Shown here in pieces: positions 5,345-21,420 of a stretch of 64,000 bases of DNA (its first letter is position 1; each line of letters starts with the position of its first letter). The translations under genes and the position numbers were made by a program. Origin of the DNA: an uncultured Candidatus Saccharibacteria bacterium. Lineage in GTDB: Bacteria > Patescibacteriota > Minisyncoccia > Phycocordibacterales > CALRHW01. Under the pieces are notes generated by a model. That model was given only the letters and a program-made list of their open reading frames with translations, was not told where the DNA came from and made no database searches. The stretch is from contig CAYOUG010000004.1 in NCBI GenBank assembly GCA_964407105.1, positions 6,936 to 70,935 of the forward strand, given 5' to 3'.

Positions 5345-7777
5345 CTATTTTTTCTTTTCTTCAATCGGTAAATCAGCTCGTTTTTCTGGTTTATCGTCTA
5401 CAGGTGGTTCAGCGTTTACAAATGGCGCACGACCCGCATTTAAGTTTTCAAGAATAAGCATAACCTCTGGATTGCCTGGATTTAATGCTAAAATTTCTTC
5501 CATTTGCTTAACGGCGAGCTGTCGTTTGTTTATTTTTTCATAACTCAAACCAAGAAAATACTTTGCATTTGAATATTCTGGCAAAAGCGAAATTGCACGT
5601 TCAAAAGATTTCACTGCACCAACATAATCTTTGTAATTGTATTTGAGTAATCCTAGCTCAAAAAACACACCGACATCATTTGGAGAAATGACAGAAATGT
5701 TTTCAACAGAAGCAATCGCCGACTTTATATCTCCCTGACTCACTTCTATTTTAGATTTTAAGAAAATAGCTTCACTGTAATTTGATTTTTTAGATAACGC
5801 TTGAGCAATATATTCTTTTGCTTTTACAAAATCCTGTTTTGTTGCCTCAAGACGAGCCAAAATAAAGTAAATTTGTGGGTTTGCCGAACTTCTTTTTGAC
5901 GCCTCTTCATATGCATTTTTTGCGTTCTCATAAGCCTGATCCAAACCAAGGGGCATCACCGATTCATAAACCCTACCAAGTGCCACCCAATTTTCATAAT
6001 TTGTATTATTAAATTCAATTGCTTTTTGGGCGCTTACTATTGCATTTCCAAGTATTCTTTGAAATTCTTGCTGCACCGCTTCTGTTACTTCACCGGTAGT
6101 AACAGAAGAAACAATAACACCGAGACGATTGATTTGTAACGCGGAATACTCTCGATAAAACGCATCATTTGCACCATACGTAATGGCTTGTCCAATATTT
6201 TTTTCAGCAAAATCAAGATTACCTCCTGCACGCAAAGTGGATGCACCGCGTTCAAAAAAGTAAGCAGATACCATTTTTTGACTAAAACCATACAAAAACG
6301 CAAGACTCACTATACAGATCAATACAAAAGCAAGAACAAAAACGAAACTTGCCTTTGGGAAAGAGGCGAAAGCAAAAGTTTTAGATTTCAAAACCCCCTG
6401 CATGTGTGCGGTAGCAAAAAACAATCCTGTCATAAAAAACGTAAGCACAATAATTGCTGTGCTCGGAACATAAAATATACACATAATCCAGAAATAAAGG
6501 GAAACAAAAAACGATGTGGTTGAAGCATAACGCACAATACTTCTCTGTTCACGAGTAAAAAGTGATATAAAACCAACATAAACAAAAAGCGCCAAAAAGA
6601 CCAACCACGATAATATACCAAATATTCCTGTGGTCACTAAAAATGTAGGAACAAAACCAATGCCAGAAATAAAATCTAGGTTCCAAAACTGTGTTGTGTT
6701 TATGTCAATTGGTTTAAATTGTTGCCATGCTGTAGAAAAATTGTTTGGGCCTATTCCAAATGCTGGGTTTTCTTTTAGTACATTTTTGGAAATGTTAAAC
6801 GTCGCTGTCCATGATGGGCGCACCTGAATATTAGACGCGCCAAGCATTGAGGAAATTGAATTGCTAAACACACTACCTAAAGGCAATAAAAACATAATGG
6901 AAATAACAAGAACCACTAGTGATCGAATAGATACTTTTCTTGTATTATTTCTTCCTTTTGCAATATGAACAACCTCACCATTTGGACTCGTCTCAATTTT
7001 TTTCTCATAATTCGAAACGCCTTCAATTGAAAAGAAATAAACAAAAAACACCAGAGAAAGACACGCTAACACAATCCAAAGAAGTGAAAAATTGGTGATA
7101 ACCAAAAAACAAATTGCCAACACAAAAATCCCATACATAAACATCTTTAAAACTTTTGAAATCGGCAAAAGTTCTATGGTCATAAGTGAAATAATGAGTG
7201 TAGAACCATACAAAATAGCAAGATCATACCATCCACCCACAGGAGTAGCATCTTGAGTAGTAAACATTCCAAAAGAAAGAAAATTTGGACCAAAAAGAAA
7301 ACGAACGAGATGAAAAAGTGAAACTATTATCACAGAAAATAAAATTGCACCAAAAGCATAAACTAATCTTTTTTCAGATCTAAATAAAAGAGAAACTAAA
7401 AAAGTACAAATTGAAACAATAAACAAAAAACTAAATGTACCAACCTCAAAACCATATCCCATGAATGATCGCGCTGAAGAACTACTAAAAATAGAAGCGA
7501 TCAAAGCAATAAGGGGTATAGAAGCAAGCGCTATGTAAATATAGCTAGTTGGCAACTCAAACTGTCCCCTTTTTAATAAATAAACTATGTAGAGACAAAA
7601 AGAAATAATTACAGTAAAAAATACAAGTGCGACCTTACTAAATTGAAAAGTTATAAAAGCCGATGGAATAAAAAAGAATGAAACACAAGTAAGTAAAATA
7701 AATACGCCCAAAAGTGGTAGTTTTTCCAATGTAAATATCGCTCGAATACCTCTTTTATTAACAGTGTTTTCTTCCAT
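5345..7777 (-). CDS. Polytopic membrane protein with O-antigen-ligase/Wzy_C-like core fused to C-terminal TPR repeats
   Basis: 810 aa. About 12 TM helices with a large periplasmic loop in the Wzy_C position, then about 300 aa of TPR-like repeats (AYENAKNAYEEA..., YFLGLSYEKINKRQLAVKQMEEILALNP). Paralogous to 31645-33843. Confidence 0.6.
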   Translation of the reverse strand: MEENTVNKRGIRAIFTLEKLPLLGVFILLTCVSFFFIPSAFITFQFSKVALVFFTVIISFCLYIVYLLKRGQFELPTSYIYIALASIPLIALIASIFSSSSARSFMGYGFEVGTFSFLFIVSICTFLVSLLFRSEKRLVYAFGAILFSVIIVSLFHLVRFLFGPNFLSFGMFTTQDATPVGGWYDLAILYGSTLIISLMTIELLPISKVLKMFMYGIFVLAICFLVITNFSLLWIVLACLSLVFFVYFFSIEGVSNYEKKIETSPNGEVVHIAKGRNNTRKVSIRSLVVLVISIMFLLPLGSVFSNSISSMLGASNIQVRPSWTATFNISKNVLKENPAFGIGPNNFSTAWQQFKPIDINTTQFWNLDFISGIGFVPTFLVTTGIFGILSWLVFLALFVYVGFISLFTREQRSIVRYASTTSFFVSLYFWIMCIFYVPSTAIIVLTFFMTGLFFATAHMQGVLKSKTFAFASFPKASFVFVLAFVLICIVSLAFLYGFSQKMVSAYFFERGASTLRAGGNLDFAEKNIGQAITYGANDAFYREYSALQINRLGVIVSSVTTGEVTEAVQQEFQRILGNAIVSAQKAIEFNNTNYENWVALGRVYESVMPLGLDQAYENAKNAYEEASKRSSANPQIYFILARLEATKQDFVKAKEYIAQALSKKSNYSEAIFLKSKIEVSQGDIKSAIASVENISVISPNDVGVFFELGLLKYNYKDYVGAVKSFERAISLLPEYSNAKYFLGLSYEKINKRQLAVKQMEEILALNPGNPEVMLILENLNAGRAPFVNAEPPVDDKPEKRADLPIEEKKK

Positions 7778-7865: not shown

Positions 7866-7895
7866 ACACAAAAACCCGCTTTAGGCGGGTTTTTG
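7866..7895 (-). terminator. Bidirectional intrinsic terminator downstream of rnpB
   Basis: aaaacccgc-tttag-gcgggtttttg; GC stem flanked by A-run and T-run, directly 3' of the rnpB end. Confidence 0.6.
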
Positions 7896-7903
7896 TAATT
7901 TTT

Positions 7904-8248
7904 TTGTCTTGTGTCTATAAGCCGAATTCTGTATCTTTTCAGACGATGATTATTTATCTGTTCTGCTTGTTACCAAGCGAATCAAGCGGCACTCTCTGCT
8001 TTCGCAGAGCACGGCCTTGCATACACGTAAGGATTTAGCCGTTGCAATTTATGTGTTACCACACAAACTTATCCGATTACTCGGATACCGTATTCTTTCG
8101 AAATCCGGCGTCTCTGTTCGCACCTCGCAAGTTACCTTGGACGGGTGTTACCCGCTACGCTCTCCCGCGCGTCCGAAGGCGCGCGGGCTGTATGTTCGGA
8201 CTTTCCTCTATATGCTTTCGCATACAGCAATCATCCAACACAAGACCA
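7904..8248 (-). ncRNA. rnpB: RNase P RNA (bacterial type A)
   Basis: The minus-strand sequence contains the universally conserved P4 region GAGGAAAGTCCGAAC, followed by ...GCCCGCGCGCCTTCGGACGCGCGGGAG...GCGGGTAACACCCGT (cf. E. coli GGGUAACGCCUGGG). The 3' P4 strand ACAGAATTCGGCTTATAG matches E. coli ACAGAACCCGGCUUAUCG. A P1 helix pairs GTCTTGTGT (5' end) with ACACAAGAC (3' end). The region is a GC-rich island in AT-rich DNA. Confidence 0.87.
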
Positions 8249-8283: not shown

Positions 8284-11200
8284 TTAGATTTCTGGCTCAA
8301 CCGGAGAAGAATTTTCTGGGGCTGATTCACCCTCAGGTTGTACTTGATCAACAGAAGAAGAATCGTTTGGTGGATTTACATCAGCATCAGCACTAGCATC
8401 TCCAGAAATTTCATCTCCGCCAGTTTGGGCTTGTGTCTGTGGGGGTTGCACTTCGCTAGTAGGCACCTCAACATTATTATTTTGACCACACTCACCAGCG
8501 ACAGAAAGCATTTTTCCATTAGACATCTTCAAACAATAAGGTTCGCCTGTAACCTCATCATAAAGTGTAATTCCTGTTGGCTTTTCACTACTTCCCACTG
8601 TAAATGTTTCTACTATCACATTTTTAAATTGAGCAACATCTTGTGCAATATTTACACCAAAATTTTTCAAATAATTCATTATCGCAACAATCAAAGATTC
8701 TGAATTTACAATTCCAGTAGAGGTTGCAGAGCTTGTTGCGGTAGTAGATGCAACACCAAGCTGATTTTCCAAAGCGGTGACTCGCATTTCTAGATTATCA
8801 AACTTATGTTGAAGTGCTTTTACGCCACCAAGCGTAAACACCGCGAGCTTATATGCATCTATATCTTTACCACCAACAGAAAGAATTTCACTTGGTGCTT
8901 CATCAGCAACAATTCCAAGTCGAAGTGGCGCCGACTCATCTTCATTTTTGTATCGATAAGTTGAAATTGTTGTACCTTTTATTTTATCAAGATACGTATC
9001 TAGATCAGTCTCAGTAAGTGATGTCACTGAATCAAGTTTGTTGCGATCACCAAATACTGAAAATCCGTAGCCAGCAACATCACCTGACACCGTAAGCTTG
9101 AACGAAGGACTTGTAGTACCAATACCTACGTTACCAAACGTGTCTTGTACCAACATATTTCCATAGTAGTAGGTTGGCTCAACTTTCATCATCACTGTTT
9201 TTGTGTAAAGTTTTGAATTTTCATCATATGATTGAATAGCTCGACCAATTACAGGACCAGAGGCTGTTGCTTTCATGGCCACACCAGAAATAGATGAGGA
9301 AGTGAGATAATCTCCTGGTTTAATATCTCCATTTTCAAGAGAGATAAGTACTGGCACACGTCCGGACATTGCTACGTTCACAGTATGTTCATTTGTTTCT
9401 CCAAGATTTTGTACACTTGTCATACCCACCACACCAAAAACATTTGCGTCATAAATTTTATTACTCAAACGCACACGTGAGGTGTCTTTTTCGTGGAAAG
9501 CAACCACCGAGCCCTCAACAAATTGAGTTGGATCTCCCACTAAATATGGCGCGGTAATAGCAGCCGCAGAAACAGAATTATAATTTTTAATATCATCTTC
9601 ACTAAGTGACGCCACACCACCCACTTCTTCAGATTGAGCAATCATTGGTGTAGAAAGAGATCCTGGTGGATCATCCATCCAAAAACGAATAAGAGAAACA
9701 AGTAGACTTGGATTTGCGTTGGCTGTAACACTAGCACCAGCAAAATTTGCAACGAGTGTTATTGGCTGAAGTGTCGCCGAAGGAATGGTTGTATTGTGTA
9801 CCGCCACCACAGCACCATTTATCAAATATGTTGCTGAGGTAGTAGAAAGTTCAATACGCATTTTTAGAAAATTTGTGGTCGAAGTCGCTACGTTTGTATT
9901 AGTAAATGTTTCTCCACTTCTATTTTTAGTAACCATTATCCAATTTGGCCCAGAGGTTGCTGTAAAAAATGCGCCCTGTGTTGGTACGGTTCCTGTATCA
10001 GCACCAAAAGCGGCGTCTGTAAGACCTACAACATAAAGAGGTGTGGTAGTAGCTGTCGCAGTACGTGTAGCTTGTACCCATGCTTCAAATATTGGACTTG
10101 ATGTTGCAGAACTAGTAAAAACCGCTGTGCGAAGTGCGCTTCCGTCTCCAACGGTTGGATTTGTTGCGCCGGCTTGCAATTGAATAGCGGGAGGGTATGT
10201 GTTCCTTGTTAAAATCGCGGTGCCGTCTGTATCTAAGTCGAAAGCAAAATCTCCACAGGCACCAGCAGCATCAGAAGACCAAGCACCTCCTCCAGAACCA
10301 CCCACATCGCAAGAAAGATATCGCCACGTTGTATATACACGACCAGCTACAGTAAGCTGATCTCGAAGTCCACCAGCACCCCACGTGGTTGTTGTACCGA
10401 TAGCTACACGAGCATAATCTAGAAGACCTGTGGTTGTGGAAGTTACATAAAAGAGTGGTTGCTGTCCTCCGTTATTCCAATCACTTGTGGTCGCCACTAT
10501 AAAAGACGGGAGAATACTGTCCGTTCCACCACCCACCACAGAAAGTTTTGCATATGCTGATGTGGTGCCGATTCCAAAATTTCCAACAGAACTTAATGTT
10601 GCTTTTGTTGCATTATTTACTCTAAATCCCATCGATTTTCCTGATGGTGTATTAAATATTGTTCCTTCACCAGCATCCCACAAAAATGAATAACTATTCG
10701 TGTCTGGTGCAACCGTGTTTGCTCCAAACCATATTCCGGGATATGTGGTGTCTCCCACGATATTTCCCAACAAAACCCCCCTTCCAGCTCCAGCGTTAGA
10801 AAATCCAGCAACCAAATTACCAGCAACGTCTAATTTTTGTACTGGTGAGCTAGTACCAATTCCTACATTTCCAATATTATTTACCAAAAAATATGTTGAT
10901 GTGGCGTTTGAAACAGATGATGATGCGATTGCAAATAAAGGAATTTGAGATGAAGCGTTTACGCTTGTTATGGAAAGTTTTGCATATGGTGTAGTTGTAC
11001 CGATTCCAACAAGTCCAGTAGAAGTGATGCGCATACGTTCATTTGATGAAAGTGTGCCAGCTGTATGGAAAATAATATTTGCATTGCCTGTGGTAGACGC
11101 AGTACCAATGGCAAGATTGCTATCTGAACTATAAAGATAGGCATCATTTGCGCCGGTGATAGAAAACGCTGCTTGATTGTATGTAGAACTATTGATACCA

Positions 11201-14200
11201 AGATCTACATAATATTTTGTATCTGAACCCAAATCATTTGTTGCTATCCAGTCAGAAGAAGCTGCACTTCCTGAACTTGAATTTTGAATATTTGCTTGAA
11301 GATATCCATCTGTAGATGAGCCAATATTTAACATTGCGCCAGGAAACAATGATCCTGATCCGATAATTGTCTGTGAAAGATACGAAGTACTCGACGCATA
11401 TATTCCTGCCTTTGCCCACAGTGCTGTGGTGGTAGCTGAGGTATTTACTCCGTAGTTTGTAAGTGGTGTGAATGGGAAAGCACCTCCTGATGCAGTAATA
11501 GCTCCACAGGTTACTACCCCTGATGAATCGGTAGTAAGTGCACTTGATCCACTACAACCAGAGATACCTGAAATATTGAGTGCTGTGGTGGAAGCTGTGC
11601 CTGAGACGGTGATTGCGGTGGTTGAAGCGTATGGGAAGGTGGAGGCAGAGCTTGAGGTAGAGGTAATAGCACCACCAACAAAAAGAGTACTTGAGATGTA
11701 ACCCGCACCGTGTACTGAAAAAAGTTTCCCAGGTGTACTTGTAGCGACTCCCACATTTCCAAAAGCCGAAACACTATTATGACCAAGAACTACATTTCCA
11801 TTAGCGTTTCCTTGACCCGCATAAATAAAGACACTACCACCAGAAGCCTGAGCTTCTGTATCACTACCAGCCCCAATAAACACATCTCCTCCTTGAGTAG
11901 TTACAGTGTCCGCACCCAAAATAGAAAGTCGCCCACCTCCAGCAGTATCAAAACCGATTGTTCTGTTTGTGGCGGCCGATGTAAAATACAAATCACCATT
12001 TACTTCAAGTCTTGCGTTTGGACTCAATGTACCAACCCCAATAAATCCACTTGAATTCCATATTCCAGAACCTGGGAAGTAGGCTGTACCAGAAACAGAA
12101 AGTGCGGTAGTGGTTGCATTTGTTGTGGTTGAGTTATCAAAGATTGCGTTTGCAAAATATGAGGTTGATGATGCAAATATCCCAGACTGTGCCCACAGTG
12201 CTGTGGTGGTAGCTGAGGTATTTACTCCGTAGTTTGTAAGTGGTGTGAATGGGAAAGCTCCTCCTCCACCCACAATAGCTCCACAGGCTACTACTCCTGA
12301 TGCGTTGGTAGTAAGTGCGTTTGATCCACTACAACCCGAGATACCTGAAATATTGAGTGCTGTGGTAGAAGCTGTACCTGTGACAGTGATTGCGGTAGTT
12401 GAAGCGTATGGGAAGGTGGAGGCAGAGCTTGAAGTAGAGGTGATGGTGCCGCCGACAAAGAGAGTACTTGAGATGTAACCCGCGCCCTGAACAGCAAATT
12501 TTGTGCTTGGGGTTGCAGTAGCCACTCCAACATTTCCAAAAATATCAACGATAAATTGTGTCGAGGTTGCAATACCTGTTGAAGAAGAGGCTACTACAAA
12601 TTGTGGTATGAGACTGTTGTGAGAACTAACGGAAAGTTTTGCCCATGGAGTACTTGTACCAACACCAACTCTTCCTCCAGTATCAGCAATAATTACATTT
12701 CCATCGTAAGCAGGAACCCCTCCACTTGAAGCACCACCACGTATGTATATGTTCCCGCCACTTGTTGATCCGCCCACATCTTCATTTCCAGCAGCACCCG
12801 CCGCCAACAAAAGATGACTTCCTGCAACATCAGATGCACTTTGTCCAATAAATATTCTTCTTGTAGCAATTGAAGCTATACCTGGAAAAGAGATATCGCC
12901 AGCAACCAAAAGCTGAGGTAAACCGCTTGGATTTAGATCAGAATTTGATGTAGTAAATCTTTGGTAAGAACCAATTTGTACATACTGATTGTATACAGCG
13001 AGAACATCTCTATCTGATGATGTTGCTACAGTGAGTAGTTTCAAGCCGGGTTCATTATTTCCAAATCCAGTTATTGTTGAACCTACGATAGCAAGTTTCG
13101 CCTTTGCCGAGGTGGTACCTATATAAAGACCTGTTGCAAATGTACTTGTGGCAGAAAAATTCGCAGCCACAAATTGTGAAGTACTCGACGCAAATATTCC
13201 AGACTGTGCCCACAGTGCTGTGGTGGTAGCTGAGGTATTTACTCCGTAGTTTGTAAGTGGTGTGAATGGGAAAGCTCCTCCTCCACCCACAATAGCTCCA
13301 CAGGCTACTACTCCTGATGCGTTGGTAGTAAGTGCACTTGATCCACTACATCCTGAGATACCTGAAATATTGAGTGCAGTGGTGGAAGCTGTGCCTGAGA
13401 CGGTGATTGCTGTGGTTGAAGCGTATGGAAATACTGAAGCTGTTGATGTAGTAGCGGTGAAGTATGCGGATACGGTCTCTCCCACCACAGAAAGTTTTGC
13501 GTATGGTGAGGTGGTGCCGACTCCGACATTGCCGCCATTCAAAACTATTTTTCCATTAGCACCAGCAGAAGCGTTTGCGCCAGATGTGCCCGCAGTAATA
13601 TAAACACTACCTCCCGCACCACCAGTATCTGGACCGCCACTACCAGCTCCGCCATTACCTGCAGTAAGAGTTAAATCTCCACCAACACCCGCTGGACCAC
13701 CTGATCCACCAGCACCACCAGTACCTGTGGTTATGGTTATAGCACCACCCGCTCCACCAGCACCACCTGCTCCAGTTCCAGTTCCACCAGTTCCAGCAAA
13801 AAGAAGCATTTTGCCACCGACACCAGCCGTTGCTCCAGATCCACCCGTTCCACCAAGAACTGAAAACACTGTTGATGCACTAATACCAGAAGATTGATCG
13901 TTTCCTTTTACTGAAAACTTAGCAAATGGCGAACTTGTTCCCACTCCTACATTTCCAATAACATCAACAATAAAATCTGTTGTTGTTGCAAATACACCAG
14001 CAGTAGAAGAAGCAATTACAAATTGTGGTTGTGTTCCTCCGTTTGAACTAACAGAAAGTTTTGCCCATGGAGTAGTTGATGATACACCGATATTTCCAGT
14101 AGAGGTTACTCTTAAATATTCATTGCCTCCAGTAGAAAATCCAACAACATCAGCACTAGGAGAAAATACTCCAGTATTAGTATCACCACTAAATGAAAGA

Positions 14201-15777
14201 CCTGGGGTAGCGGCATTACCAGCACCAGCAATACCTAGAGTTTGAGTAGTATTAATTCTAGCTGTACCAGCAATCCAAAATTGTGTTGAAGCATTAACTA
14301 CACCGTCAGCTCGCCAATAATCGTTGGTGTTATTAAACATGAAATAATCTGTCGCTCCAGAAATTGCAGACGCCGCAAGATTTATACCATATACCGCCGC
14401 AGCACCAAGATTTGAAATATTAAGTCCTGCAAGACCAAGTCCTCCTCCGTCTATAGTAAGTCGTGAACTAGAACCGCTTGAAGCTCCGGGTGTTGATGTA
14501 CCAATACCAATAGATCCATTAAACGAAGATGTCGCGGTAGATGTACCGACAAAAGTTTCTCCTACCACCTGTCCCGCCACAGAAAGTTTTGCATAAGGTG
14601 AGGTGGTGCCGATTCCCACACTTCCAGTAGATGTCCATATTCCAGAACCTGGGAAATAAGCAGTACCAGAAACAGAAAGTGCGGTAGTGGTTGCATTTGT
14701 TGTGGTTGAGTTATCAAAGATTGCGTTTGCAAAATATGAGGTTGATGATGCAAATATCCCAGACTGTGCCCACAGTGCTGTGGTGGTAGCTGAGGTATTT
14801 ACTCCGTAGTTTGTAAGTGGTGTGAATGGGAAAGCTCCTCCTCCACCCACAATAGCTCCACAGGCTACTACTCCTGATGCGTTGGTAGTAAGTGCGTTTG
14901 ATCCACTACAACCCGAGATACCTGAAATATTGAGTGCTGTGGTAGAAGCTGTACCTGTGACAGTGATTGCGGTAGTTGAAGCGTATGGGAAGGTGGAGGC
15001 AGTAGATGTGGTAGCGGTGAAGTATGCGGATACTGTTTGACCAACAACAGAAAGTTTTGCATAAGGTGAGGTGGTGCCGATTCCTACATTTCCTCCACTT
15101 TTTAATGTAAGTACCGATGCAGAACTTGGACCAATAAAGTTTGCAATGTCACCCGCTCCGTTTTGTGTAATCGTCAAAAATGTTGATGCAGTATTTGTAG
15201 CGTTTGTTGCATCAGCGCGCAAAAATTGCTCGCTTGAAAGACCATCTAAGGTATCTGCAACAAACGCTGCCGGCACAGCACCAAGTTTTTTTCGAGGTGT
15301 CATTTCCCCATCCCAAACCGCACCACCACCAGATCCTCCCACCTCAACCCCGAGGTAAAGCGTTTGATTGAAATCTACACTCGTCAGCGGTGTAGAGCTT
15401 CCAAGCATAACACTGAAAAGACCGTTGGTAAGGGTGATACGATCACCTGCCGCAGTACTCCTGTCTTCATCCCAAATACTCGCTCCACCTGTTGCAACAG
15501 TGTAGAGCTTAAATCTCATGTGATACGTGCCATCAGCGACAGCAACATTGCTTGAATTAGTAAGCTTTCCCTGATAATTAATTTCTTTATTAAATGCAGC
15601 GTTTGCACTTTTTGTTTGGCCTAGAAACAAAAGTTGCGGCGATAAAAGAGATACGAGTACAACAAACACAACAGCTGTTGTATATACGCGTAGAAAACGA
15701 CGTGTGCATGCAAAAGCCGTCGTGCGCATTGTGACCGCATTTCTTATATCTATGATGTTTTTAATAAGCGTACGCAT
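8284..15777 (-). CDS. Giant secreted fibre/adhesin-like protein (2497 aa). Repetitive Gly/Thr/Ser-rich tail-fibre-like beta-helical repeats, Gly-rich block, C-terminal Peptidase_S74 intramolecular chaperone domain plus acidic C-terminal extension
   Basis: N-terminal signal/TM (VVFVVLVSLLSPQLLFLGQ). At least 10 copies of G(I/V)GT(T/S)SP(Y/W/F)AKLSV(V/S)G-type repeats. Four copies of a roughly 130-aa module (SAYFTATTSTAS...CSGS...ACGAIVGGGGAFPFTPLTNYGVNTSATTTALWAQSGIFASSTS). Near the C-terminus ...FGDRNKLDSVTSLTETDLDTYLDKIKGTTISTYRYKNEDESAPLRLGIVADEAPSEIL...YKLAVFTLGGVKALQHKFDNLEMRVTALENQL matches the endosialidase-chaperone (S74) domain consensus (SDRRLKenI...l..v.Y.yk......r.GfIAqEv..v.Pe.v........y.l...i.A.kel....eeLe). 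Confidence 0.85.
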   Translation of the reverse strand: MRTLIKNIIDIRNAVTMRTTAFACTRRFLRVYTTAVVFVVLVSLLSPQLLFLGQTKSANAAFNKEINYQGKLTNSSNVAVADGTYHMRFKLYTVATGGASIWDEDRSTAAGDRITLTNGLFSVMLGSSTPLTSVDFNQTLYLGVEVGGSGGGAVWDGEMTPRKKLGAVPAAFVADTLDGLSSEQFLRADATNATNTASTFLTITQNGAGDIANFIGPSSASVLTLKSGGNVGIGTTSPYAKLSVVGQTVSAYFTATTSTASTFPYASTTAITVTGTASTTALNISGISGCSGSNALTTNASGVVACGAIVGGGGAFPFTPLTNYGVNTSATTTALWAQSGIFASSTSYFANAIFDNSTTTNATTTALSVSGTAYFPGSGIWTSTGSVGIGTTSPYAKLSVAGQVVGETFVGTSTATSSFNGSIGIGTSTPGASSGSSSRLTIDGGGLGLAGLNISNLGAAAVYGINLAASAISGATDYFMFNNTNDYWRADGVVNASTQFWIAGTARINTTQTLGIAGAGNAATPGLSFSGDTNTGVFSPSADVVGFSTGGNEYLRVTSTGNIGVSSTTPWAKLSVSSNGGTQPQFVIASSTAGVFATTTDFIVDVIGNVGVGTSSPFAKFSVKGNDQSSGISASTVFSVLGGTGGSGATAGVGGKMLLFAGTGGTGTGAGGAGGAGGAITITTGTGGAGGSGGPAGVGGDLTLTAGNGGAGSGGPDTGGAGGSVYITAGTSGANASAGANGKIVLNGGNVGVGTTSPYAKLSVVGETVSAYFTATTSTASVFPYASTTAITVSGTASTTALNISGISGCSGSSALTTNASGVVACGAIVGGGGAFPFTPLTNYGVNTSATTTALWAQSGIFASSTSQFVAANFSATSTFATGLYIGTTSAKAKLAIVGSTITGFGNNEPGLKLLTVATSSDRDVLAVYNQYVQIGSYQRFTTSNSDLNPSGLPQLLVAGDISFPGIASIATRRIFIGQSASDVAGSHLLLAAGAAGNEDVGGSTSGGNIYIRGGASSGGVPAYDGNVIIADTGGRVGVGTSTPWAKLSVSSHNSLIPQFVVASSSTGIATSTQFIVDIFGNVGVATATPSTKFAVQGAGYISSTLFVGGTITSTSSSASTFPYASTTAITVTGTASTTALNISGISGCSGSNALTTNASGVVACGAIVGGGGAFPFTPLTNYGVNTSATTTALWAQSGIFASSTSYFANAIFDNSTTTNATTTALSVSGTAYFPGSGIWNSSGFIGVGTLSPNARLEVNGDLYFTSAATNRTIGFDTAGGGRLSILGADTVTTQGGDVFIGAGSDTEAQASGGSVFIYAGQGNANGNVVLGHNSVSAFGNVGVATSTPGKLFSVHGAGYISSTLFVGGAITSTSSSASTFPYASTTAITVSGTASTTALNISGISGCSGSSALTTDSSGVVTCGAITASGGAFPFTPLTNYGVNTSATTTALWAKAGIYASSTSYLSQTIIGSGSLFPGAMLNIGSSTDGYLQANIQNSSSGSAASSDWIATNDLGSDTKYYVDLGINSSTYNQAAFSITGANDAYLYSSDSNLAIGTASTTGNANIIFHTAGTLSSNERMRITSTGLVGIGTTTPYAKLSITSVNASSQIPLFAIASSSVSNATSTYFLVNNIGNVGIGTSSPVQKLDVAGNLVAGFSNAGAGRGVLLGNIVGDTTYPGIWFGANTVAPDTNSYSFLWDAGEGTIFNTPSGKSMGFRVNNATKATLSSVGNFGIGTTSAYAKLSVVGGGTDSILPSFIVATTSDWNNGGQQPLFYVTSTTTGLLDYARVAIGTTTTWGAGGLRDQLTVAGRVYTTWRYLSCDVGGSGGGAWSSDAAGACGDFAFDLDTDGTAILTRNTYPPAIQLQAGATNPTVGDGSALRTAVFTSSATSSPIFEAWVQATRTATATTTPLYVVGLTDAAFGADTGTVPTQGAFFTATSGPNWIMVTKNRSGETFTNTNVATSTTNFLKMRIELSTTSATYLINGAVVAVHNTTIPSATLQPITLVANFAGASVTANANPSLLVSLIRFWMDDPPGSLSTPMIAQSEEVGGVASLSEDDIKNYNSVSAAAITAPYLVGDPTQFVEGSVVAFHEKDTSRVRLSNKIYDANVFGVVGMTSVQNLGETNEHTVNVAMSGRVPVLISLENGDIKPGDYLTSSSISGVAMKATASGPVIGRAIQSYDENSKLYTKTVMMKVEPTYYYGNMLVQDTFGNVGIGTTSPSFKLTVSGDVAGYGFSVFGDRNKLDSVTSLTETDLDTYLDKIKGTTISTYRYKNEDESAPLRLGIVADEAPSEILSVGGKDIDAYKLAVFTLGGVKALQHKFDNLEMRVTALENQLGVASTTATSSATSTGIVNSESLIVAIMNYLKNFGVNIAQDVAQFKNVIVETFTVGSSEKPTGITLYDEVTGEPYCLKMSNGKMLSVAGECGQNNNVEVPTSEVQPPQTQAQTGGDEISGDASADADVNPPNDSSSVDQVQPEGESAPENSSPVEPEI
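11377..11706. repeat. Intragenic DNA repeat copy 1 (most divergent) inside the giant fibre gene
   Basis: Shares tgcccacagtgctgtggtggtagctgaggtatttactccgtagtttgtaagtggtgtgaatgggaaagc... through ...gagtacttgagatgtaacccgc with the copy at 12058-12486. The antisense ORF 11468-11701 translates nearly identically to the ORFs at 12245, 13262 and 14822. Confidence 0.75.
12058..12486. repeat. Intragenic DNA repeat copy 2 (about 430 bp), near-identical to copy 4
   Basis: 12058-12426 is essentially identical to 14635-15003 (about 369 bp), and then continues like copy 1. Confidence 0.8.
13166..13436. repeat. Intragenic DNA repeat copy 3
   Basis: agactgtgcccacagtgctgtggtggtagctgaggtatttactccgtagtttgtaagtggtgtgaatgggaaagctcctcctccacccacaatagctccacaggctactactcctgatgcgttggtagtaagtgc... 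is shared with copies 2 and 4. Confidence 0.8.
14635..15003. repeat. Intragenic DNA repeat copy 4, near-identical to copy 2
   Basis: See copy 2. The identity runs from ccatattccagaacctggg... through ...gcgtatgggaaggtggaggcag. Confidence 0.8.
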
Positions 15778-15780
15778 TAA

Positions 15781-17349
15781 TTATTTTTTGAGAAGCGCTC
15801 GGACAAATTTATATCCGAGAAAAAGCAACACAAAGATAAGTATTAGAACAAGAAGAACAGGAATATTTTCTGAAACAAGAACAAACAAACCGTGAAGTGA
15901 TAAATCTGTATTTGATGCAACATTTGGCATCAAAGACACGATCACACCTGCAAGTTTTTTTAATCCTTGATTTTTGTAATCAAGAATCGTTACACCAAAC
16001 TCAAACTTTCCTGAACGACCAAGCGGTGCAATGAGTGCCTCATAAGCTGTTTTCTCTTTATTTACTCGAAGCAAAAACGAAAATGTTTTAGAGTGATCTT
16101 CTGGGTCTCGCATTGTTACCGTAATCGTCTTTAGAATTTCTGGAACTTTTTTGTAATCAAGAGAAATTGTAAGTTCTCGATCTCCTTCTATTTCAACTGA
16201 GTGAGAAGTAACAGAAAGTTTTTTACCATTTTGAAAGAAATCTAAATCAAGCACCGTGAGTCCCGCAATCATTGGATGAACTTTTGATTGAGGTAACTCT
16301 TGTATTTCTCCAAAAAGATCTTCTGAATCATGTGGCTCGCCTATTTTATAGAGTCGGCCTTTTGTAACCGCTCCAGATGAATAGTTACCAAACTCATCGC
16401 GAGCAAAAACTGTGTAGTAATAAACTTTTCCATACTCCACATCTGTGTCTACTAGAAATTCAGCATTTCCTTCATAAACCACTTTTCCATCAAACAAATC
16501 TTTTGGATAAAATTTGTCAGATCGCACTACACGTACAGATTCAAAATCCACAAGAGGATTTTTCCAAGAGAGTGTGATTTTTTTATCATCACCCACCGCT
16601 TTTAAATTTGTAACGTTACTCGGCGGATTTGTATCAGGTAATGATGTAGTTACAAATTGTTGATTGTCTATCACAAGTTTTCGTCCATATGCATCAATAA
16701 GCTCGATTCTGAAATAATATGTCGTACCCGGTGTAAGACTTTCTATACTAATAGAGTGATTTGTGAGAAAGAGCTGTTCGGCAAGAGTACCGATCTCATA
16801 ATCTGGAGTTTCTCCCCACGACACAATCGCTTGTGTGTAGATGTTTGTCTCAAAATTTATGACAGAACTTGTAACGTCTGGTTGCACCGACATGCCAAGC
16901 AATTTAAGCAACAAAGTTCCCGATATGTTTCCATCACTGGTTGTTGGTGGTGGAACTGAGGCTTCAAGTGTTGTCGCAGTAGCGGTTGCTGATGTTGGTG
17001 AATAGTTGAACGATGAATCAAATGCGGTCACTGTATAGTCGTATGTTGTTTCCGGAGAAAGACCAGTATTTGAATATGTCGTTGCGGTAGATGTTGCAAT
17101 AAACACTAGATCACGAAAGACTTGATATCCTGCAACACCATAATTATCTGTTGATGCAGTCCATGAAAGATTTATCTGCGAACTCGATACTGCAGTAGCT
17201 GTAAGATTTGTGGGAGTAGATGGGGCGACACCGTCAACGACCGTTATTGATTGCTCTACTTGAAACGTATCTTCTGCCGCTTGTATAGATAGCACCGCAC
17301 CACAAAGTGTGACGGTGAAAACCATAAAAATGTATAGAAGTTTTTTCAT
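15781..17349 (-). CDS. Cell-surface protein with fibronectin type III domains, N-terminal signal peptide and C-terminal TM anchor
   Basis: 522 aa. Signal peptide (MKKLLYIFMVFTVTLCGAVLSIQA). FN3 hallmark motifs (NLTATAVSSSQINLSWTASTDNYGVAGYQVFRD; KKITLSWKNPLVDFESVRVVRSDKFYP...YYYTVFARDEFGN). C-terminal hydrophobic anchor IPVLLVLILIFVLLFLGYKFVRALLKK. The stop lies 3 nt from the giant gene start. Confidence 0.7.
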   Translation of the reverse strand: MKKLLYIFMVFTVTLCGAVLSIQAAEDTFQVEQSITVVDGVAPSTPTNLTATAVSSSQINLSWTASTDNYGVAGYQVFRDLVFIATSTATTYSNTGLSPETTYDYTVTAFDSSFNYSPTSATATATTLEASVPPPTTSDGNISGTLLLKLLGMSVQPDVTSSVINFETNIYTQAIVSWGETPDYEIGTLAEQLFLTNHSISIESLTPGTTYYFRIELIDAYGRKLVIDNQQFVTTSLPDTNPPSNVTNLKAVGDDKKITLSWKNPLVDFESVRVVRSDKFYPKDLFDGKVVYEGNAEFLVDTDVEYGKVYYYTVFARDEFGNYSSGAVTKGRLYKIGEPHDSEDLFGEIQELPQSKVHPMIAGLTVLDLDFFQNGKKLSVTSHSVEIEGDRELTISLDYKKVPEILKTITVTMRDPEDHSKTFSFLLRVNKEKTAYEALIAPLGRSGKFEFGVTILDYKNQGLKKLAGVIVSLMPNVASNTDLSLHGLFVLVSENIPVLLVLILIFVLLFLGYKFVRALLKK

Positions 17350-17355
17350 TACGTT

Positions 17356-18120
17356 TTAAAGGGGTAGTGCAGTAACTGTTGTTGTGGCTAGATATACTCC
17401 TTCTGGTTGAAGATGTGCAGTGCCAGATTGAGCACGAAATTTTAGTGTTGTAGCGGTACCTGATGGATGATTTGGAGAAGTACTTCTACTTATTACTTCA
17501 TTCGCAGTTGAGAGATTGTACCAACACGCATCTGCTGTATCGGTTGTGTCAACATTGCATGTGTTAGATCCATTGTCTTTAAACTTTTGAACAATGTGTG
17601 AACCTTCAGGTGTAAAAGCAAATTCTGATGCAGAAGCAGCGATTGAAAAGGTGAAATCTGGATTTGCACCAGCTGGTGTATAATCCGCAAAACTATTTGC
17701 ACCACTCACAAGCGCTGGTGAAGAACTTGCTTTGATACTAAGTTCATAACCAGAAGGACTGTCGGTAATAACCGTCACAACCGCGGATCCATTTGAAGTA
17801 CCGCCGGTCACACCACCAATATTTGGACTCATAACCACATCAGAAACAGAAGTAATTGCGATATACACTTCTTGCATCTGTTGATACCCTGCTTTTATTT
17901 TGTAGAGTGTGCCTGAAGATTCGCCAGTAGCTACTTCTCCAGCAGTACTTTCTTGCGTATAACTTGTAGAAGTAGAAAGTCCTCCTCCAAAATTAACGCT
18001 GTCGCTTTGAATTTTGTATAACGTACCGGTCATTTGAGCAAAAGAAACATTGCCAAATGTTGATACCACATACAAAGAAACTGAAACAAATAAAGCTGTA
18101 TACAGATAAGCCTTAAACAT
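17356..18120 (-). CDS. Secreted Ser/Thr-rich protein, paralog A of 19104-19808
   Basis: 254 aa with signal peptide. Shares with 19104-19808 the motifs VTGGTS.G, GY...IKASSSPA, KFKDNGSNTCN, two conserved Cys (..NTCN... ..CW..LST) and a T/A-rich C-terminus (TATATLTAVT / ATTTVTALPL). Confidence 0.55.
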   Translation of the reverse strand: MFKAYLYTALFVSVSLYVVSTFGNVSFAQMTGTLYKIQSDSVNFGGGLSTSTSYTQESTAGEVATGESSGTLYKIKAGYQQMQEVYIAITSVSDVVMSPNIGGVTGGTSNGSAVVTVITDSPSGYELSIKASSSPALVSGANSFADYTPAGANPDFTFSIAASASEFAFTPEGSHIVQKFKDNGSNTCNVDTTDTADACWYNLSTANEVISRSTSPNHPSGTATTLKFRAQSGTAHLQPEGVYLATTTVTALPL

Positions 18121-18122
18121 GA

Positions 18123-19094
18123 TTATGATTTCTTTCGAATTTCAAACCGAGTAACAATAAATCGAATTACAAAGAGCAAGATTATAATGATCACACACGC
18201 AAGAACGAGAAGTTTTATTGGAATTACCCAAAAAGTAAATTCCATTGTGTCTACAATGTTGTCATAACCCCTATTTATAGAAGCTACGGCCGTGTATTTT
18301 CCGAGAAGAAAACCACTATTCCATTGCACCTCTCGAAGTCTCAGCGAGTCAGGCATCGCAAACCAAGGAGCCACTTCTACATTTCCAATTTCCTTTCCAA
18401 GAATATTTTTTATACTGATTTCTCCATAAGGATTTTCGTGCACACTTCCTTTGTTTTCATAAAGAAGTTCAAACTGCACTGGACCAGCACCATAAATTTT
18501 CTTTGTATTTTTTGTTTGGAATTGTGTAAGTTTTCCTTCTTGTTTTACCTCACCCGGTACTCGAATAAAAAACAATGTTCCTATGCGAGTAACTATTGCA
18601 CTTGATGGACCTTTGGCGCCCGTTGGTTTTGAAGCGGTACTTACAAGAACACTTCCATACAAACCACCCGGCTGTGCATCTGCTGGAACAAACACAGTCA
18701 CAGGAATAATTGCTCTCTGTGCGTGCATGAGTTCAAAACTTTTTTCTGGAAAAGAAATATAATCTTTTAGAGAATATGGACCGTGATCTTCACCAAGAAG
18801 AACAACTGTATCTGAGGTATTTTTAGAACCACTAAAATCTTCGGTATCAAGATAAAAGATACGAGTATCTCCCATTCTGTTACTTACTGAAATATTTACT
18901 GTTTTACTTTCTCCGGGTTTTATTTCAAGTTCCTGTTTTCCAGGACCAACCACGAAGTCACTTCGCACAATATCGTCAGGAAGCGCTTCTATCGTGTAAG
19001 AAAAAACTTTAGAAAAAGGAAAAAGAGACACTAAACAAAAAAACATAATGACACCAACCTTCCAGGATATGTAATTTTTTTCTGTAGACGTCAT
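18123..19094 (-). CDS. Surface protein with N-terminal signal peptide, beta-rich ectodomain and C-terminal TM anchor
   Basis: 323 aa. Hydrophobic N-terminal segment, ectodomain beginning YTIEALPDDIVRSDFVVGPGKQELEIKPGESKTVNISVSN, C-terminal TM LLVLACVIIIILLFVIRFIV followed by basic residues. Flanked by the two paralogous secreted proteins. Confidence 0.5.
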   Translation of the reverse strand: MTSTEKNYISWKVGVIMFFCLVSLFPFSKVFSYTIEALPDDIVRSDFVVGPGKQELEIKPGESKTVNISVSNRMGDTRIFYLDTEDFSGSKNTSDTVVLLGEDHGPYSLKDYISFPEKSFELMHAQRAIIPVTVFVPADAQPGGLYGSVLVSTASKPTGAKGPSSAIVTRIGTLFFIRVPGEVKQEGKLTQFQTKNTKKIYGAGPVQFELLYENKGSVHENPYGEISIKNILGKEIGNVEVAPWFAMPDSLRLREVQWNSGFLLGKYTAVASINRGYDNIVDTMEFTFWVIPIKLLVLACVIIIILLFVIRFIVTRFEIRKKS

Positions 19095-19103
19095 ACGGTT
19101 AAT

Positions 19104-19808
19104 TTAGTTTGTAACTGCTGTGAGGGTGGCTGTAGCTGTGTATGTGTCTTGAGCAAGACCTGAATTTGAACCAACAGAAACTCTAAAATAAACACTTGAT
19201 GTCGAACCAGATGCTGTTGTTTCGCTAGAAGATACTATGGTTGATGTTGCCGAAGTAGAAAGACCCATCCAACATGATCCAGATCCACCAGTATCGGCCG
19301 ATCCCGTATTGCATGTATTTGAACCATTATCTTTAAACTTTGTTGCAAGTTCTGCTGTAGTACTTGCAGAAACACTAAAACCAAATTTATGTGTACCCGC
19401 ACCCGCTGCTGAATAAGCATAATCAGGAACACCAGTAACCGCAGGAGAATAATCTGATATTGATCCACCTTGAGAATCTGCTTGCATTGCGGGCGAACTA
19501 CTTGCTTTTATTGTCATGGTATAACCAGCAGCATTGTTGGTTGTAACAATTGCTGTTGTTGTACCGTATGACGTACCTCCAGTAACACCGGCAATAGAAC
19601 CGTTCATTGTGACGTTGTTTGCTCCGGTTAAGAAAGCAATTTCTGAGGTGATTGATTGAGTAACTGTAAATTGATCTTCAACCGCTCGACTTAGTGTGGG
19701 TTCAATAACCACAAAAGCCAACGCAAGTGTAAGAGTCAAAAAGAAACTCGCTGCAATCGCCTGTCTTACATTTATTTTTTTAATCATAATTTTTAATTTA
19801 ACTTTCAA
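19104..19808 (-). CDS. Secreted Ser/Thr-rich protein, paralog B of 17356-18120
   Basis: 234 aa. Signal peptide (start possibly at an internal Met, MIKKINV...). Homology to 17356-18120 through the IKASSSPA / KFKDNGSNTCN / CW.GLST motifs. Confidence 0.55.
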   Translation of the reverse strand: MKVKLKIMIKKINVRQAIAASFFLTLTLALAFVVIEPTLSRAVEDQFTVTQSITSEIAFLTGANNVTMNGSIAGVTGGTSYGTTTAIVTTNNAAGYTMTIKASSSPAMQADSQGGSISDYSPAVTGVPDYAYSAAGAGTHKFGFSVSASTTAELATKFKDNGSNTCNTGSADTGGSGSCWMGLSTSATSTIVSSSETTASGSTSSVYFRVSVGSNSGLAQDTYTATATLTAVTN

Positions 19809-19899: not shown

Positions 19900-20799
19900 T
19901 TAATCATCAACCGGTACAAGAACATATAAATATTCTTGATCATTTGTATTTTTAAATATTGGTTTTATCACACCAGAAGAACCTGTTTCGTCTGGTACGA
20001 CCTGTGTTTGATCAGAAAATGAATTCTTAATTCTCTGTTTTACTTTTTCATTTTTAAATTCATCTCCTGTACCTGGCACCACAATCATTCCCGTCTTTGA
20101 ATCTTGCGATACAGAATTTCGATGGTTTATATCATCACGCACAACCACTGTTTTATTTATATTCATACGCAACAAAGATGAAATAAATCTGTATGAATTT
20201 AAAGCGATTGAATCAAATTTGTTACGCAACGAATGCGTAAGATCACGAACACTAATCTGGATATTATTTACATTTGAAACACTTGCGGAATCTCGCACAA
20301 GTGCAAGTGTTTTAGATGTTTTAGAAACAAAAGAAGTTATAAATATTTTTTCTGAAGAAATAAAATGTTCTGAAACAACAGCAATATTTGTTTGATATTG
20401 TTTGTTGTTTGAACCATAAGCAAAAAAAGCTATTGCAGAAATTACAATAAACAAAAGGGCATAAAACATTCCTGAATGTGAAAGAAAAGAAAATACTTCA
20501 GAGGGAGCAAATTCTTTTTTGTTCGTTTTTAGGTTTTCTGACGCTTTAAAAACCGAAGCATTTTGTGACACAACACTGACTGGAGGAAATACGATTGTTC
20601 CACGAATTTTTTCAGATGCATCTTTTTGGTGTTCGATGATCGAATCTTCGCTCACAAACCAACCCCTTCCCACCTGTCGGCACTCAAGTTTGCCAGATCG
20701 ACAAAGTTGACCGATATAATCCGAATTATAGCCAGATATTTCTGAACCTCGTTTTGCCGAGATATATTTTTTTCCGTTGAAATAGAGCTCGCTATTCAT
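19900..20799 (-). CDS. Membrane-anchored protein with N-terminal excisionase/MerR-like HTH, single TM and extracytoplasmic C-terminal domain
   Basis: 299 aa. The N-terminal about 60 aa (KKYISAKRGSEISGYNSDYIGQLCRSGKLECRQVGRGWFVSEDSI) has the HTH_17/Xis-MerR pattern (helix...G.L...R.G...W.v.e..i). TM segment MFYALLFIVISAIAFFAYG. Ser/Asn-rich C-terminal domain. Confidence 0.45.
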   Translation of the reverse strand: MNSELYFNGKKYISAKRGSEISGYNSDYIGQLCRSGKLECRQVGRGWFVSEDSIIEHQKDASEKIRGTIVFPPVSVVSQNASVFKASENLKTNKKEFAPSEVFSFLSHSGMFYALLFIVISAIAFFAYGSNNKQYQTNIAVVSEHFISSEKIFITSFVSKTSKTLALVRDSASVSNVNNIQISVRDLTHSLRNKFDSIALNSYRFISSLLRMNINKTVVVRDDINHRNSVSQDSKTGMIVVPGTGDEFKNEKVKQRIKNSFSDQTQVVPDETGSSGVIKPIFKNTNDQEYLYVLVPVDD

Positions 20800-21133: not shown

Positions 21134-21376
21134 ATGAATAATTCATTCTTAACAATCAAACAAGTATCTAAAATTCTAGGTGTAACACCACTTACACTTA
21201 GAAATTGGGACAACTCTGGTAAGTTTGAAGCTACCCGACACCCCATAAATAACTACAGAGTATACAAGCGTGAAGACGTGGAAGCATTCATTCATAAAAT
21301 GGGCACAAAAAACTCCACAACACGACAAAAGAGAAATCAAGTTAAAAAGCTCAATATACTGCATTTGGATGATTAA
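21134..21376 (+). CDS. Small standalone excisionase/MerR-family HTH DNA-binding protein (about 80 aa)
   Basis: LTIKQVSKILGVTPLTLRNWDNSGKFEATRHPINNYRVYKREDVEAFI is a textbook HTH_17 (excisionase/MerR-type) domain. The tabulated ORF starts at 21065 but MNNSFLTIKQ at 21134 (or MLCTM at 21122) is the more plausible start. Basic C-terminal tail. Confidence 0.6.
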   Translation: MNNSFLTIKQVSKILGVTPLTLRNWDNSGKFEATRHPINNYRVYKREDVEAFIHKMGTKNSTTRQKRNQVKKLNILHLDD

Positions 21377-21420
21377 AAATTTATAACTATTTGTAATCTG
21401 AAGAAACAAAATTAACCATT

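Follow-up and report, generated by a model that had tools for sequence, protein, structure and literature searches.

A giant fibre gene among housekeeping genes

The 64,000-nt stretch of contig CAYOUG010000004.1 analysed here (the window) carries an uninterrupted open reading frame (ORF) of 7,494 nt (8284..15777, minus strand) that starts with an ATG and encodes, up to its stop codon, a fibre protein of 2,497 amino acids (aa). All features of this gene and of the five-gene cluster that precedes it lie on the same minus strand. An earlier interpretation made from the letters alone (the sequence-only reading) had taken this ORF for a giant secreted protein, in agreement with the intact frame and start codon found here. 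Gly, Thr, Ser and Ala account together for 50% of the residues, which explains why the GC content of the gene (41-46%) is raised when compared to that of the window (ca. 34%). The possibility that internal repeats had generated the gene as an assembly artefact was rejected, since the repeat copies differ in 5-16% of their nucleotides, no interruption of the frame occurs along 7.5 kb and other genomes have orthologues of 2,002-2,558 aa. The gene is taken as real, with the reservation that the exact number of Cys modules (see below) is not guaranteed in a metagenome-assembled genome (MAG).

The protein begins with a putative Sec-type leader (aa 1-60, 15598..15777), read from the sequence as a hydrophobic core followed by SANA-AFN with the junction after aa 60; Met17 is a possible alternative start. 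This junction fits cleavage by signal peptidase I and an AxA-A(F/T) junction is kept in 4 orthologous fibres, immediately before a conserved 'INYQGKLT', in line with the N-terminal signal or membrane segment proposed earlier. The predicted mature fibre has at its N-terminus the strand AFNKEINYQGKL and opens with a domain (aa 61-200, 'AFNKEINYQGKLT...', 15178..15597) that is the best-conserved part of the family, with 76% identity to the syntenic orthologue in locus L002 and 55-61% to those in loci L004 and L005. A search with this N-domain returned 196 matches, of which all named ones belong to Patescibacteria, with 45-85% identity among the 120 matches listed. No match was found for the N-domain in a Pfam scan or for the fibre in an NCBIfam scan. 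We propose that it may act as a docking domain. The named homologues of the fibre as a whole all fall in the Patescibacteria/Parcubacteria group, the best one being from Zambryskiibacteriota, and such proteins are labelled "tail fiber domain-containing protein" at NCBI. Nearly all N-domain matches are short "partial" products, encoded by pieces of genes located where contigs end; being giant and repetitive, fibre genes of this type routinely interrupt metagenome assemblies and are under-counted and mis-sized in MAGs.

The N-domain is followed by a long shaft (aa 201-1800, 10378..15177) carrying 11 of the 12 capping-loop motifs (GxVGIGTxxPxAKLxV) of the protein, the last one (aa 2215-2232, 9082..9135) being located immediately before the S74-type domain described below. 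The count of 12 was obtained with a strict regular expression (G[IV]G[TS]xxPxxKLxV), and one further variant occurs at ca. aa 1343, consistent with the "at least 10" GxGTxSPxAKLSVxG-type repeats noticed previously. A Gly-rich block reported as pure is indeed found at aa 642-749 (13531..13854) but is not made of Gly only. Likewise, the four near-identical Cys-containing modules do occur, with a different spacing than the C-x13-C initially given. Module 1 (aa 245-385, 14623..15045) displays C290-x15-C306, and modules 2 (aa 765-882, 13132..13485), 3 (aa 1108-1244, 12046..12456) and 4 (aa 1367-1476, 11350..11679) are respectively 89%, 93% and 75% identical to it. Overall, the four copies share 75-93% identity in protein and 84-95% in DNA, as determined by BLAST of successive segments; a self-comparison of the whole protein by BLAST gave the diagonal only.

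Two PHROG tail-fibre families match the shaft, namely 9942 (E 5.5e-17) and 18345 (E 6e-12). Together with the S74-type domain and with weak tblastn matches to cyanophage and Bacillus phage fibres, these could designate the gene as the tail fibre of a resident prophage or of a tailocin remnant. The phage matches are however short, with 30-45% identity, the product has a Sec leader, and a Pfam scan of the 35 kb around the fibre gene (1819-35815) detected no phage genes. Its surroundings are instead those of a cellular locus, with RNase P RNA, a tetratricopeptide repeat (TPR) membrane protein, MurJ and LepA on one side and, beyond the gene cluster, GatB, Obg, DsbB, thioredoxin, SecA and MurB on the other. 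Three genomes share, in synteny, the placement of the fibre gene between GatB on one side and RNase P, MurJ and LepA on the other. A phage origin of this kind has in our opinion next to no chance of being correct and was rejected on gene context. The conserved housekeeping neighbours and the leader support the earlier view that this secreted, tail-fibre-type protein with an S74-type domain is encoded by the cell and not by a phage.

An S74-type domain devoid of the cleavage dyad

Near the C-terminus lies an S74-type intramolecular-chaperone domain (aa 2239-2344, 8746..9063) that is predicted to be non-catalytic. A "clear" S74 match had been announced at 8740-9075, to be checked with HMMER against PF13884. 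Its location is correct but the Pfam match, although present, stays below the gathering score of 22, with 16.8 bits for the whole fibre (E 0.0086) and 18.7 bits for its C-terminal part. Homology was secured by other routes and is considered sound despite this score, because 8 aligned homologous segments match PF13884 (best E 5.6e-19), because the family profile of 8 sequences matches the ICA of MYRF over the whole domain (7DC3, E 1e-7), pb1 of phage T5 (8HQZ, E 2e-5) and other fibre chaperones, and because tblastn aligns the region with the S74 ends of the tail fibres of Bacillus phages Stahl, Staley and Slash (E 1e-7 to 1e-8, 32-45% identity). When the C-terminal 438 aa were used as a single query, a search of the PDB sequences gave no match; the family profile alone succeeded.

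The canonical cleavage motif, S-[DT]-x-x-x-K, is replaced in the fibre by the degenerate G2243-D-R-N-K-L2248 (9034..9051). A gapless alignment, anchored on both sides, places Gly2243 in the column of the Ser and Leu2248 in that of the Lys (+5), with Lys2247 one residue out of register. The alignment of the DRNK region confirms the Ser-to-Gly substitution proposed by the sequence-only reading and further reveals that the Lys of the dyad is also missing from its column, which strengthens the case against cleavage. The Ser-x4-Lys dyad of the PF13884 family is therefore absent from this domain. Both residues are needed for cleavage in MrfA, as are S911 and K916 in endoNF (PMC3828593), and a S782A substitution blocks cleavage of the Bdellovibrio MAT fibre Bd3182 (PMC10769870). 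With a Gly in place of the Ser and a Leu at the Lys position, self-cleavage has very probably been lost.

The loss of the dyad is not an accident of a single gene, as indicated by comparison with related proteins. The corresponding sites of the syntenic orthologues read AADRNLL in L002 (A/L) and KADQDDI in L001 (A/I), and among the 74 full S74 domains found in 145 related proteins, 55 keep the S...K pair while 19 do not. Many of these 19 dyad-less domains display the pattern [AGT]-x-R-[NSD]-x-[LM]. The tail fibre of phage Stahl has SLRELK at the cleavage site.

Self-cleavage by a shifted mechanism, in which Lys2247 would act with another hydroxyl such as that of Ser2240 and the C-terminal 250 aa would be removed like those of ordinary tail fibres, could be imagined since this Lys is one residue off the canonical position and Ser2240 is found three residues upstream of Gly2243. 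We consider it very unlikely: the nearest orthologues are devoid of any Lys near the site (AADRNLL and KADQDDI), so that Lys2247 is not a conserved residue, the alignment has no gap and is anchored to the left and to the right of the site, and in each of three systems tested, a single substitution of the Ser or of the Lys was enough to prevent cleavage (PMC3828593, PMC10769870).

Many related fibres contain two S74-type domains in tandem (P0011, at L001:10001-13681, P0016, P0017, P0475, P0435, P0477, P0398, P0420, P0423, P0429 and P0424). In the L001 fibre, the first one is canonical (SSTRTVK) and the second is dyad-less (KADQDDI); a cut at the first would free a C-terminal piece holding the dead S74 domain and the Cys-pair module described hereafter.

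A widespread C-terminal cassette

The S74-type domain is followed by 153 residues, in line with the ca. 150 additional residues with a Cys pair and an acidic tail described earlier. They comprise a module of ca. 75 aa (aa 2360-2434, 8476..8700), made of a helix followed by 'GITLYDEVTGEPYC-x14-C', in which the Cys pair (C2415/C2430) is invariant, and an acidic tail of 63 aa rich in P, S, E and Q (aa 2435-2497, 8287..8475) with a net charge of -14. In the AlphaFold2 monomer model of aa 1800-2445, which was built with 38 homologous segments, the Cys-pair module is predicted with a pLDDT (per-residue confidence score) of 70-88.

Such an extension had been regarded as normally absent, S74 being usually the extreme C-terminus, a view that fails for this phylum. 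A profile search of 1.84 billion representatives with the Cys-pair module retrieved 2,281 clusters at E<=1e-3, of which 998 at E<=1e-10, for proteins ranging from 100 to 6,621 aa whose named members are Patescibacteria or Parcubacteria and include a 3,878-aa "tail fiber domain-containing protein". In the 145 top-scoring representatives, the module is located ca. 90-170 aa from the C-terminus (median 117 aa); in 71 of them it begins 9-28 aa after the end of an S74 domain, and in the rest it is preceded by other domains. Most of the S74 domains that precede the module keep the Ser...Lys pair. The extension is thus a common cassette of this phylum rather than a peculiarity of one gene. No significant match to the module was obtained in PDB or Pfam sequence searches. 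A likeness of its hairpin ('PYC..NG....') to the foldon of T4 fibritin was also considered but is not supported, hhalign giving a probability of 0.8% with the same residues aligned.

The constant place of the module in 2,281 diverse clusters, ca. 90-170 aa from the C-terminus, resembles that of sorting or anchoring domains, and it occurs with and without S74, both intact and dead S74 domains being found before it. This raises the alternative of a fibre with reversed polarity or a release switch, in which the Cys-pair module and the tail would anchor the protein in the envelope of the producer (as for MYRF, whose C-terminus is in the membrane), cleavage by an intact S74 would free the fibre in relatives, and the dead dyad would tether it permanently here. 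This is distinctly unlikely in our view. Neither a membrane helix nor an LPXTG motif nor any further known anchor signal is present at the fibre C-terminus, and the module matches no known wall-binding or sorting domain; in all characterised S74 fibres, the S74 end is distal and discarded (PMC10769870, PMC3828593). A receptor-type lectin domain moreover adjoins the C-terminal end, and co-variation with the conserved products of the operon is lowest in the N-domain and not at the C-terminus.

Globular domains of the distal part

Between the shaft and the S74-type domain, the AlphaFold2 model contains two globular domains, both with pLDDT >90. The first one (aa 1819-2037, 9667..10323) is a Concanavalin-A-like jelly-roll for which Foldseek found the lectin-like subdomain of the botulinum toxin Hc (E 2e-7), the phi24B esterase (6YP6), GH16 glucanases and the lectin ERGIC-53; one homologue of this segment matches Laminin_G_3. 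Based on this predicted structure, the jelly-roll represents a candidate glycan- or receptor-binding tip. The second is a beta-barrel (aa 2069-2209, 9151..9573) with the signature 'GRVPVxVSxENGxIxxGDYLTSSSxxGVAMKA', and is the most widespread segment of the fibre among database matches. Six homologous beta-barrel segments reach PF11962, Peptidase_G2 (best E 4e-6), while the copy of the window does not.

This same beta-barrel was also found fused to a MerR/HTH_17 N-terminus in P0037, P0043, P0052, P0065, P0087, P0088, P0092 and P0104, with 50-68% identity over ca. 50-75 aa, one of these proteins being annotated as "MerR family regulator [Ca. Daviesbacteria]". The domain is common to regulators and fibre tips.

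A conserved five-gene cluster upstream of the fibre

The five genes located upstream of the fibre gene are separated by gaps of 3-10 nt, except for 91 nt after the first gene. The latter (19900..20799) encodes 299 aa with an HTH_17/MerR-like N-terminus and a membrane segment, and is conserved in loci L001 and L007. It is followed by a pilin-like protein of 234 aa (19104..19808), a WxLIP-like Ig-domain protein of 323 aa with a C-terminal membrane helix (18123..19094), a second pilin-like protein of 254 aa (17356..18120) and an Fn3-type protein of 522 aa with a signal peptide, a C-terminal membrane anchor and a PamR-like architecture (15781..17349). The two pilin-like proteins are paralogues (34% identity), the shorter one being devoid of the N-terminal hairpin segment of the other, and the 254-aa protein, which weakly matches CPR_pilus_PamT, has 1,662 detectable homologues. 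The 323-aa product, a candidate chaperone or anchor, matches PF06030 (WxLIP_PGBD) at 20.1 bits (E 6.7e-4; cut-off 27.3), and its profile matches EfmWxLIP1 (9I25/9I1Y, E 1e-4) over the first Ig domain.

In the 254-aa protein, aa 30-82 form three hairpin-like repeats of the type 'S-x-x-Y-x-(I/L/E)' (YKIQSDS...SYTQEST...LYKIKAGYQQ) that are modelled with a pLDDT of 45-56; this segment could be a donor-strand or linker element. The HTH_17/MerR-like head gene also occurs at L001:4913-5893, L007:1122-2009 and L009:4073-5954, with two copies in L009, and may encode a regulator of the cluster that is tethered to the membrane. Between this head gene and GatB (ca. 21150-21400), the opposite strand carries a small MerR-like ORF.

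Synteny between the window and the contig of match P0011 (locus L001) extends from GatB to LepA. Between the two, identity amounts to 50-69% for the housekeeping proteins, to 39% for the TPR membrane protein and to 51-59% for the cluster proteins, with 51% for the 522-aa Fn3-anchor orthologue. The L001 fibre is composed of 1,226 aa only and can be aligned at its two ends only, with 36-40% identity. A scan for the Fn3 anchor, performed with one genome per species, retrieved 4 loci, one of which (L003) is the L001 contig. Each of these loci has a giant ORF (1,226, 2,003, 2,002 and 2,558 aa) directly downstream and the same gene order, in lineages that include Zambryskiibacteriota and Falkowbacteria. 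More generally, the succession of a pilin-like, a WxLIP-like, a pilin-like and an Fn3-anchor protein followed by the giant fibre recurs in L001, L002, L004, L005 and L007, the last one (Taylorbacteria) having been reached via the N-domain and having the whole cluster upstream of its fibre.

Within this conserved frame, the two ends of the fibre are kept (up to 76% identity for the N-domain and 40-57% for the C-terminal cassette), the middle being replaced between syntenic genomes in which the protein measures 1,226, 2,003 or 2,497 aa. Conserved ends with a variable middle represent the pattern expected if one end docks on conserved partners and the tip co-evolves with a host. A conserved N-end, a conserved C-terminal folding cassette and, just before the latter, a variable receptor-type region also characterise MATs and the fibres by which phages bind their receptors.

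The five-gene cluster and the fibre were thus linked in 6 of 8 loci, and two loci depart from this organisation. In L008 (Vogelbacteria), a related fibre is located away from any pilin-like cluster and is split into three overlapping ORFs (L008:6001-11903), as a result of frameshifts or sequencing errors. L009 is rearranged, with a 288-aa gene composed of the N-domain only that abuts the Fn3-anchor gene (L009:6001-8266). Decay or rearrangement of the locus may account for both cases.

The L008 fibre, found outside such an operon, is one argument for an independent surface or matrix protein, that is a coat, a biofilm fibril or a generic adhesin that would not be docked on the cluster products, gene order reflecting only co-regulation or shared export; another is the abundance of Gly, Thr, Ser and Ala, a composition that coat proteins typically have as well. 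We see this as unlikely given that the giant fibre is downstream in 4 of 4 distinct Fn3-anchor loci (L001/L003 included) across Zambryskii-, Falkow- and other lineages, that L007, found by its N-domain, has the full operon upstream, and that conservation is much higher in the N-domain than elsewhere in the fibre.

Comparison with known fibres and pili

The sequence-only reading had proposed a chimeric trimeric fibre borne by a cell. Such fibres already exist in the MATs (mosaic adhesive trimeric fibres) of Bdellovibrio, which share the repeat motif and are secreted trimeric fibres of a bacterial predator with a conserved domain after the leader, capping loops and either an S74 domain or an adhesive tip (PMC10769870). 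The family profile matches the MAT structures 8OND (Bd2133, E 1e-8), 8OJN, 8OML, 8OL4 and 8ON4 exactly on the capping-loop motif, and the MAT-type loop V-G-(I)-G/N-x-x-x-P-x-x-x-L in a beta-helical shaft occurs in 12-13 copies in the fibre. As for MATs such as Bd3182 and Bd2133, which serve a bacterium whose life depends on other bacteria, the fibre is encoded by the cell with a signal peptide and a conserved domain after the leader (here of ca. 140 aa), and combines a capping-loop shaft, mosaic tips and a terminal S74 domain, the latter being present in most MATs. The differences are several. The producer belongs to another phylum and is a monoderm member of the Candidate Phyla Radiation (CPR) and not a diderm predator, the fibre is ca. 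2.5 times longer than MATs, and its gene shares an operon with genes for pilin-like, WxLIP-like and Fn3 proteins. Whereas MATs end with a catalytic S74 (SDxxxK) or with an adhesive tip and no S74, the C-terminus of the fibre represents a third state, in which a dyad-less S74 domain is inserted between lectin-like and beta-barrel domains and the Cys-pair module with its acidic tail. The fibre is best filed, on sequence grounds, as a variant of the MAT kind and not as a proven family member.

Phage fibres such as the K1F endosialidase, pb1 of T5 (8HQZ) and that of Stahl share with it a receptor-binding region followed by an S74-type domain with sequence similarity in the S74 core; unlike the window fibre, they have no Sec leader, end at S74, keep Ser-x4-Lys and discard the domain after folding. 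The ICA of MYRF/MrfA (7DC3; PMC3828593), the best whole-domain match in PDB, resembles it by being an internal S74-type domain with sequence beyond. MYRF is however a eukaryotic protein that forms no fibre and self-cleaves, with an intact Ser-Lys pair, to free a transcription factor.

The upstream cluster recalls the Pam pili, which are specific to CPR bacteria. According to a 2026 preprint, the pam operons of CPR genomes have a tail-fibre-like protein as a constant neighbour, the fibre itself not being analysed there (10.64898/2026.03.03.709456). As in Pam, the window has Ig-fold, pilin-like subunits of the chaperone-usher type, a chaperone-like protein and an Fn3 anchor that each have a C-terminal membrane helix, and a tail-fibre-like neighbour. 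In contrast, the PamT match is weak, no PamA/B was seen and the locus belongs to the Parcubacteria group, the preprint dealing mainly with Saccharimonadia and Microgenomatia. From these sequence comparisons, the cluster is at best a distant Pam relative.

A third parallel is provided by the WxL clusters of Firmicutes (PMC10599100; 9I25), in which WxLIP (DUF916-DUF3324 followed by a membrane segment), a membrane-anchored protein with two Ig domains and probably homologous to the 323-aa product, is encoded alongside small secreted beta-sandwich partners and a large host-binding protein. Unlike in these clusters, the large partner is here of the trimeric-fibre type and no WxL domain was detected: none was matched in Pfam at E<=10 in the small proteins or in aa 45-420 and 1800-2445 of the fibre. 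For the whole fibre, Pfam at E<=1 returned PF13884 alone and no PDB sequence match to WxL was obtained either.

Proposed organisation of the fibre and its significance

Taken together, the product of 8284..15777 is probably a Sec-exported surface fibre adhesin of a Parcubacteria-group bacterium, presumably trimeric and built on the plan of phage tail fibres and MATs, with a docked N-end, a host-binding tip and a non-cleaving S74 domain. The leader would be removed at SANA-AF, and the N-domain would then hold the fibre on the cell, most likely on a complex of the four upstream products formed by two pilin-like Ig subunits, the membrane-anchored WxLIP-like protein and the membrane-anchored Fn3 stalk. 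The beta-helical shaft, with its capping loops and recently duplicated Cys modules, would project a variable distal tip whose ConA-like lectin and beta-barrel domains may bind a ligand on the surface of a host cell. Rough scaling from Bd3182 would give such a fibre a length in the order of 0.1 µm. With a Gly replacing the nucleophilic Ser and a Leu at the position of the general-base Lys, the S74-type domain is expected to serve for trimerisation and registration only, and to stay attached together with the Cys-pair module and the acidic tail.

Several observations weigh against this proposal. The sub-threshold PF13884 match spans only profile positions 13-49 of 58 and the pLDDT of the monomer model is <50 across the S74 region. 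Lys2247 adjoins the canonical position, so that residual chemistry with another nucleophile is formally conceivable. In relatives with an intact S74, the Cys-pair module would be cut off with the chaperone. The lectin-like fold, as modelled, is generic and has no nameable ligand. As for docking, a shared operon position is no proof of a physical association, and the L008 fibre is found without the cluster. Finally, the match of the 254-aa protein to the PamT equivalog (NF058579) reaches 26.6 bits (E 3.4e-6) over the N-terminal half only, for a cut-off of 240, and no major pilin of the PamA/PamB type was found among the five cluster genes (NCBIfam, E<=10, PamT being the sole match).

A bolder version, to which we give little credence, would be a hybrid organelle on the surface of a monoderm ultra-small bacterium, with a phage-type trimeric fibre as its distal adhesin. 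The N-domain would mount this fibre on a short base assembled by donor-strand-type exchange from subunits resembling those of archaic chaperone-usher systems, to which a membrane-anchored chaperone of the WxLIP/Pam type and the Fn3 anchor would be added, while the dead S74 and the Cys-pair module would act as a permanent C-terminal trimer clamp. If true, this would represent a previously unrecognised use of an intramolecular chaperone and a first function for a domain family of >2,000 clusters.

To our knowledge, host recognition and attachment by Patescibacteria outside Saccharibacteria are largely unknown, most such lineages being uncultured. The locus offers in this respect a concrete candidate, with a hypervariable lectin-tipped fibre at a syntenic site next to a conserved five-gene surface-assembly cluster in several Parcubacteria-group lineages. 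By analogy with MATs, the fibre is a plausible host-attachment device, as the sequence-only reading had suggested. An S74 fibre carried by a cell is not a new concept, and neither the naming of such proteins as "tail fiber domain-containing" nor the co-localisation of fibres with pili is novel, and a phage-like S74 fibre on a bacterium living on bacteria is established in Bdellovibrio; the value of the present data lies in extension and mechanistic detail and not in a new principle. What appear to be new are a coherent, naturally dyad-less S74 subclass, representing about a quarter of the domains examined, the size and spread of the C-terminal module family, and the association of the five-gene cluster with a hypervariable fibre in the Parcubacteria group.

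Other features of the locus

The RNase P RNA (bacterial class A, 7902-8246, minus strand) scores 108.5 bits for a gathering score of 100 and begins 37 nt after the stop codon of the fibre gene. It is preceded, at the very end of the fibre gene, by a promoter-like element (TTGAAA-17-TATAGT, extended TG, 8281-8253), and closed by a symmetric GC hairpin that has runs of A and T on its sides (7868-7896).

On the other side, genes for DsbB, a thioredoxin-fold protein and SecA (25901-26440, 26453-26848 and 27504-30035, minus strand) are located ca. 10 kb upstream of the cluster. The proximity of an extracytoplasmic disulfide machinery fits with the Cys pairs of the fibre, of its C-terminal module and of the pilin-like proteins.

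Finally, two large polytopic membrane proteins with C-terminal TPR repeats are encoded near the fibre locus (5345-7777 and 31645-33843, both on the minus strand). One of them matches Wzy_C (O-antigen ligase-like), while the other, encoded immediately beyond the gene for the RNase P RNA, has syntenic counterparts in L001 and L002; both may be surface-glycan enzymes.

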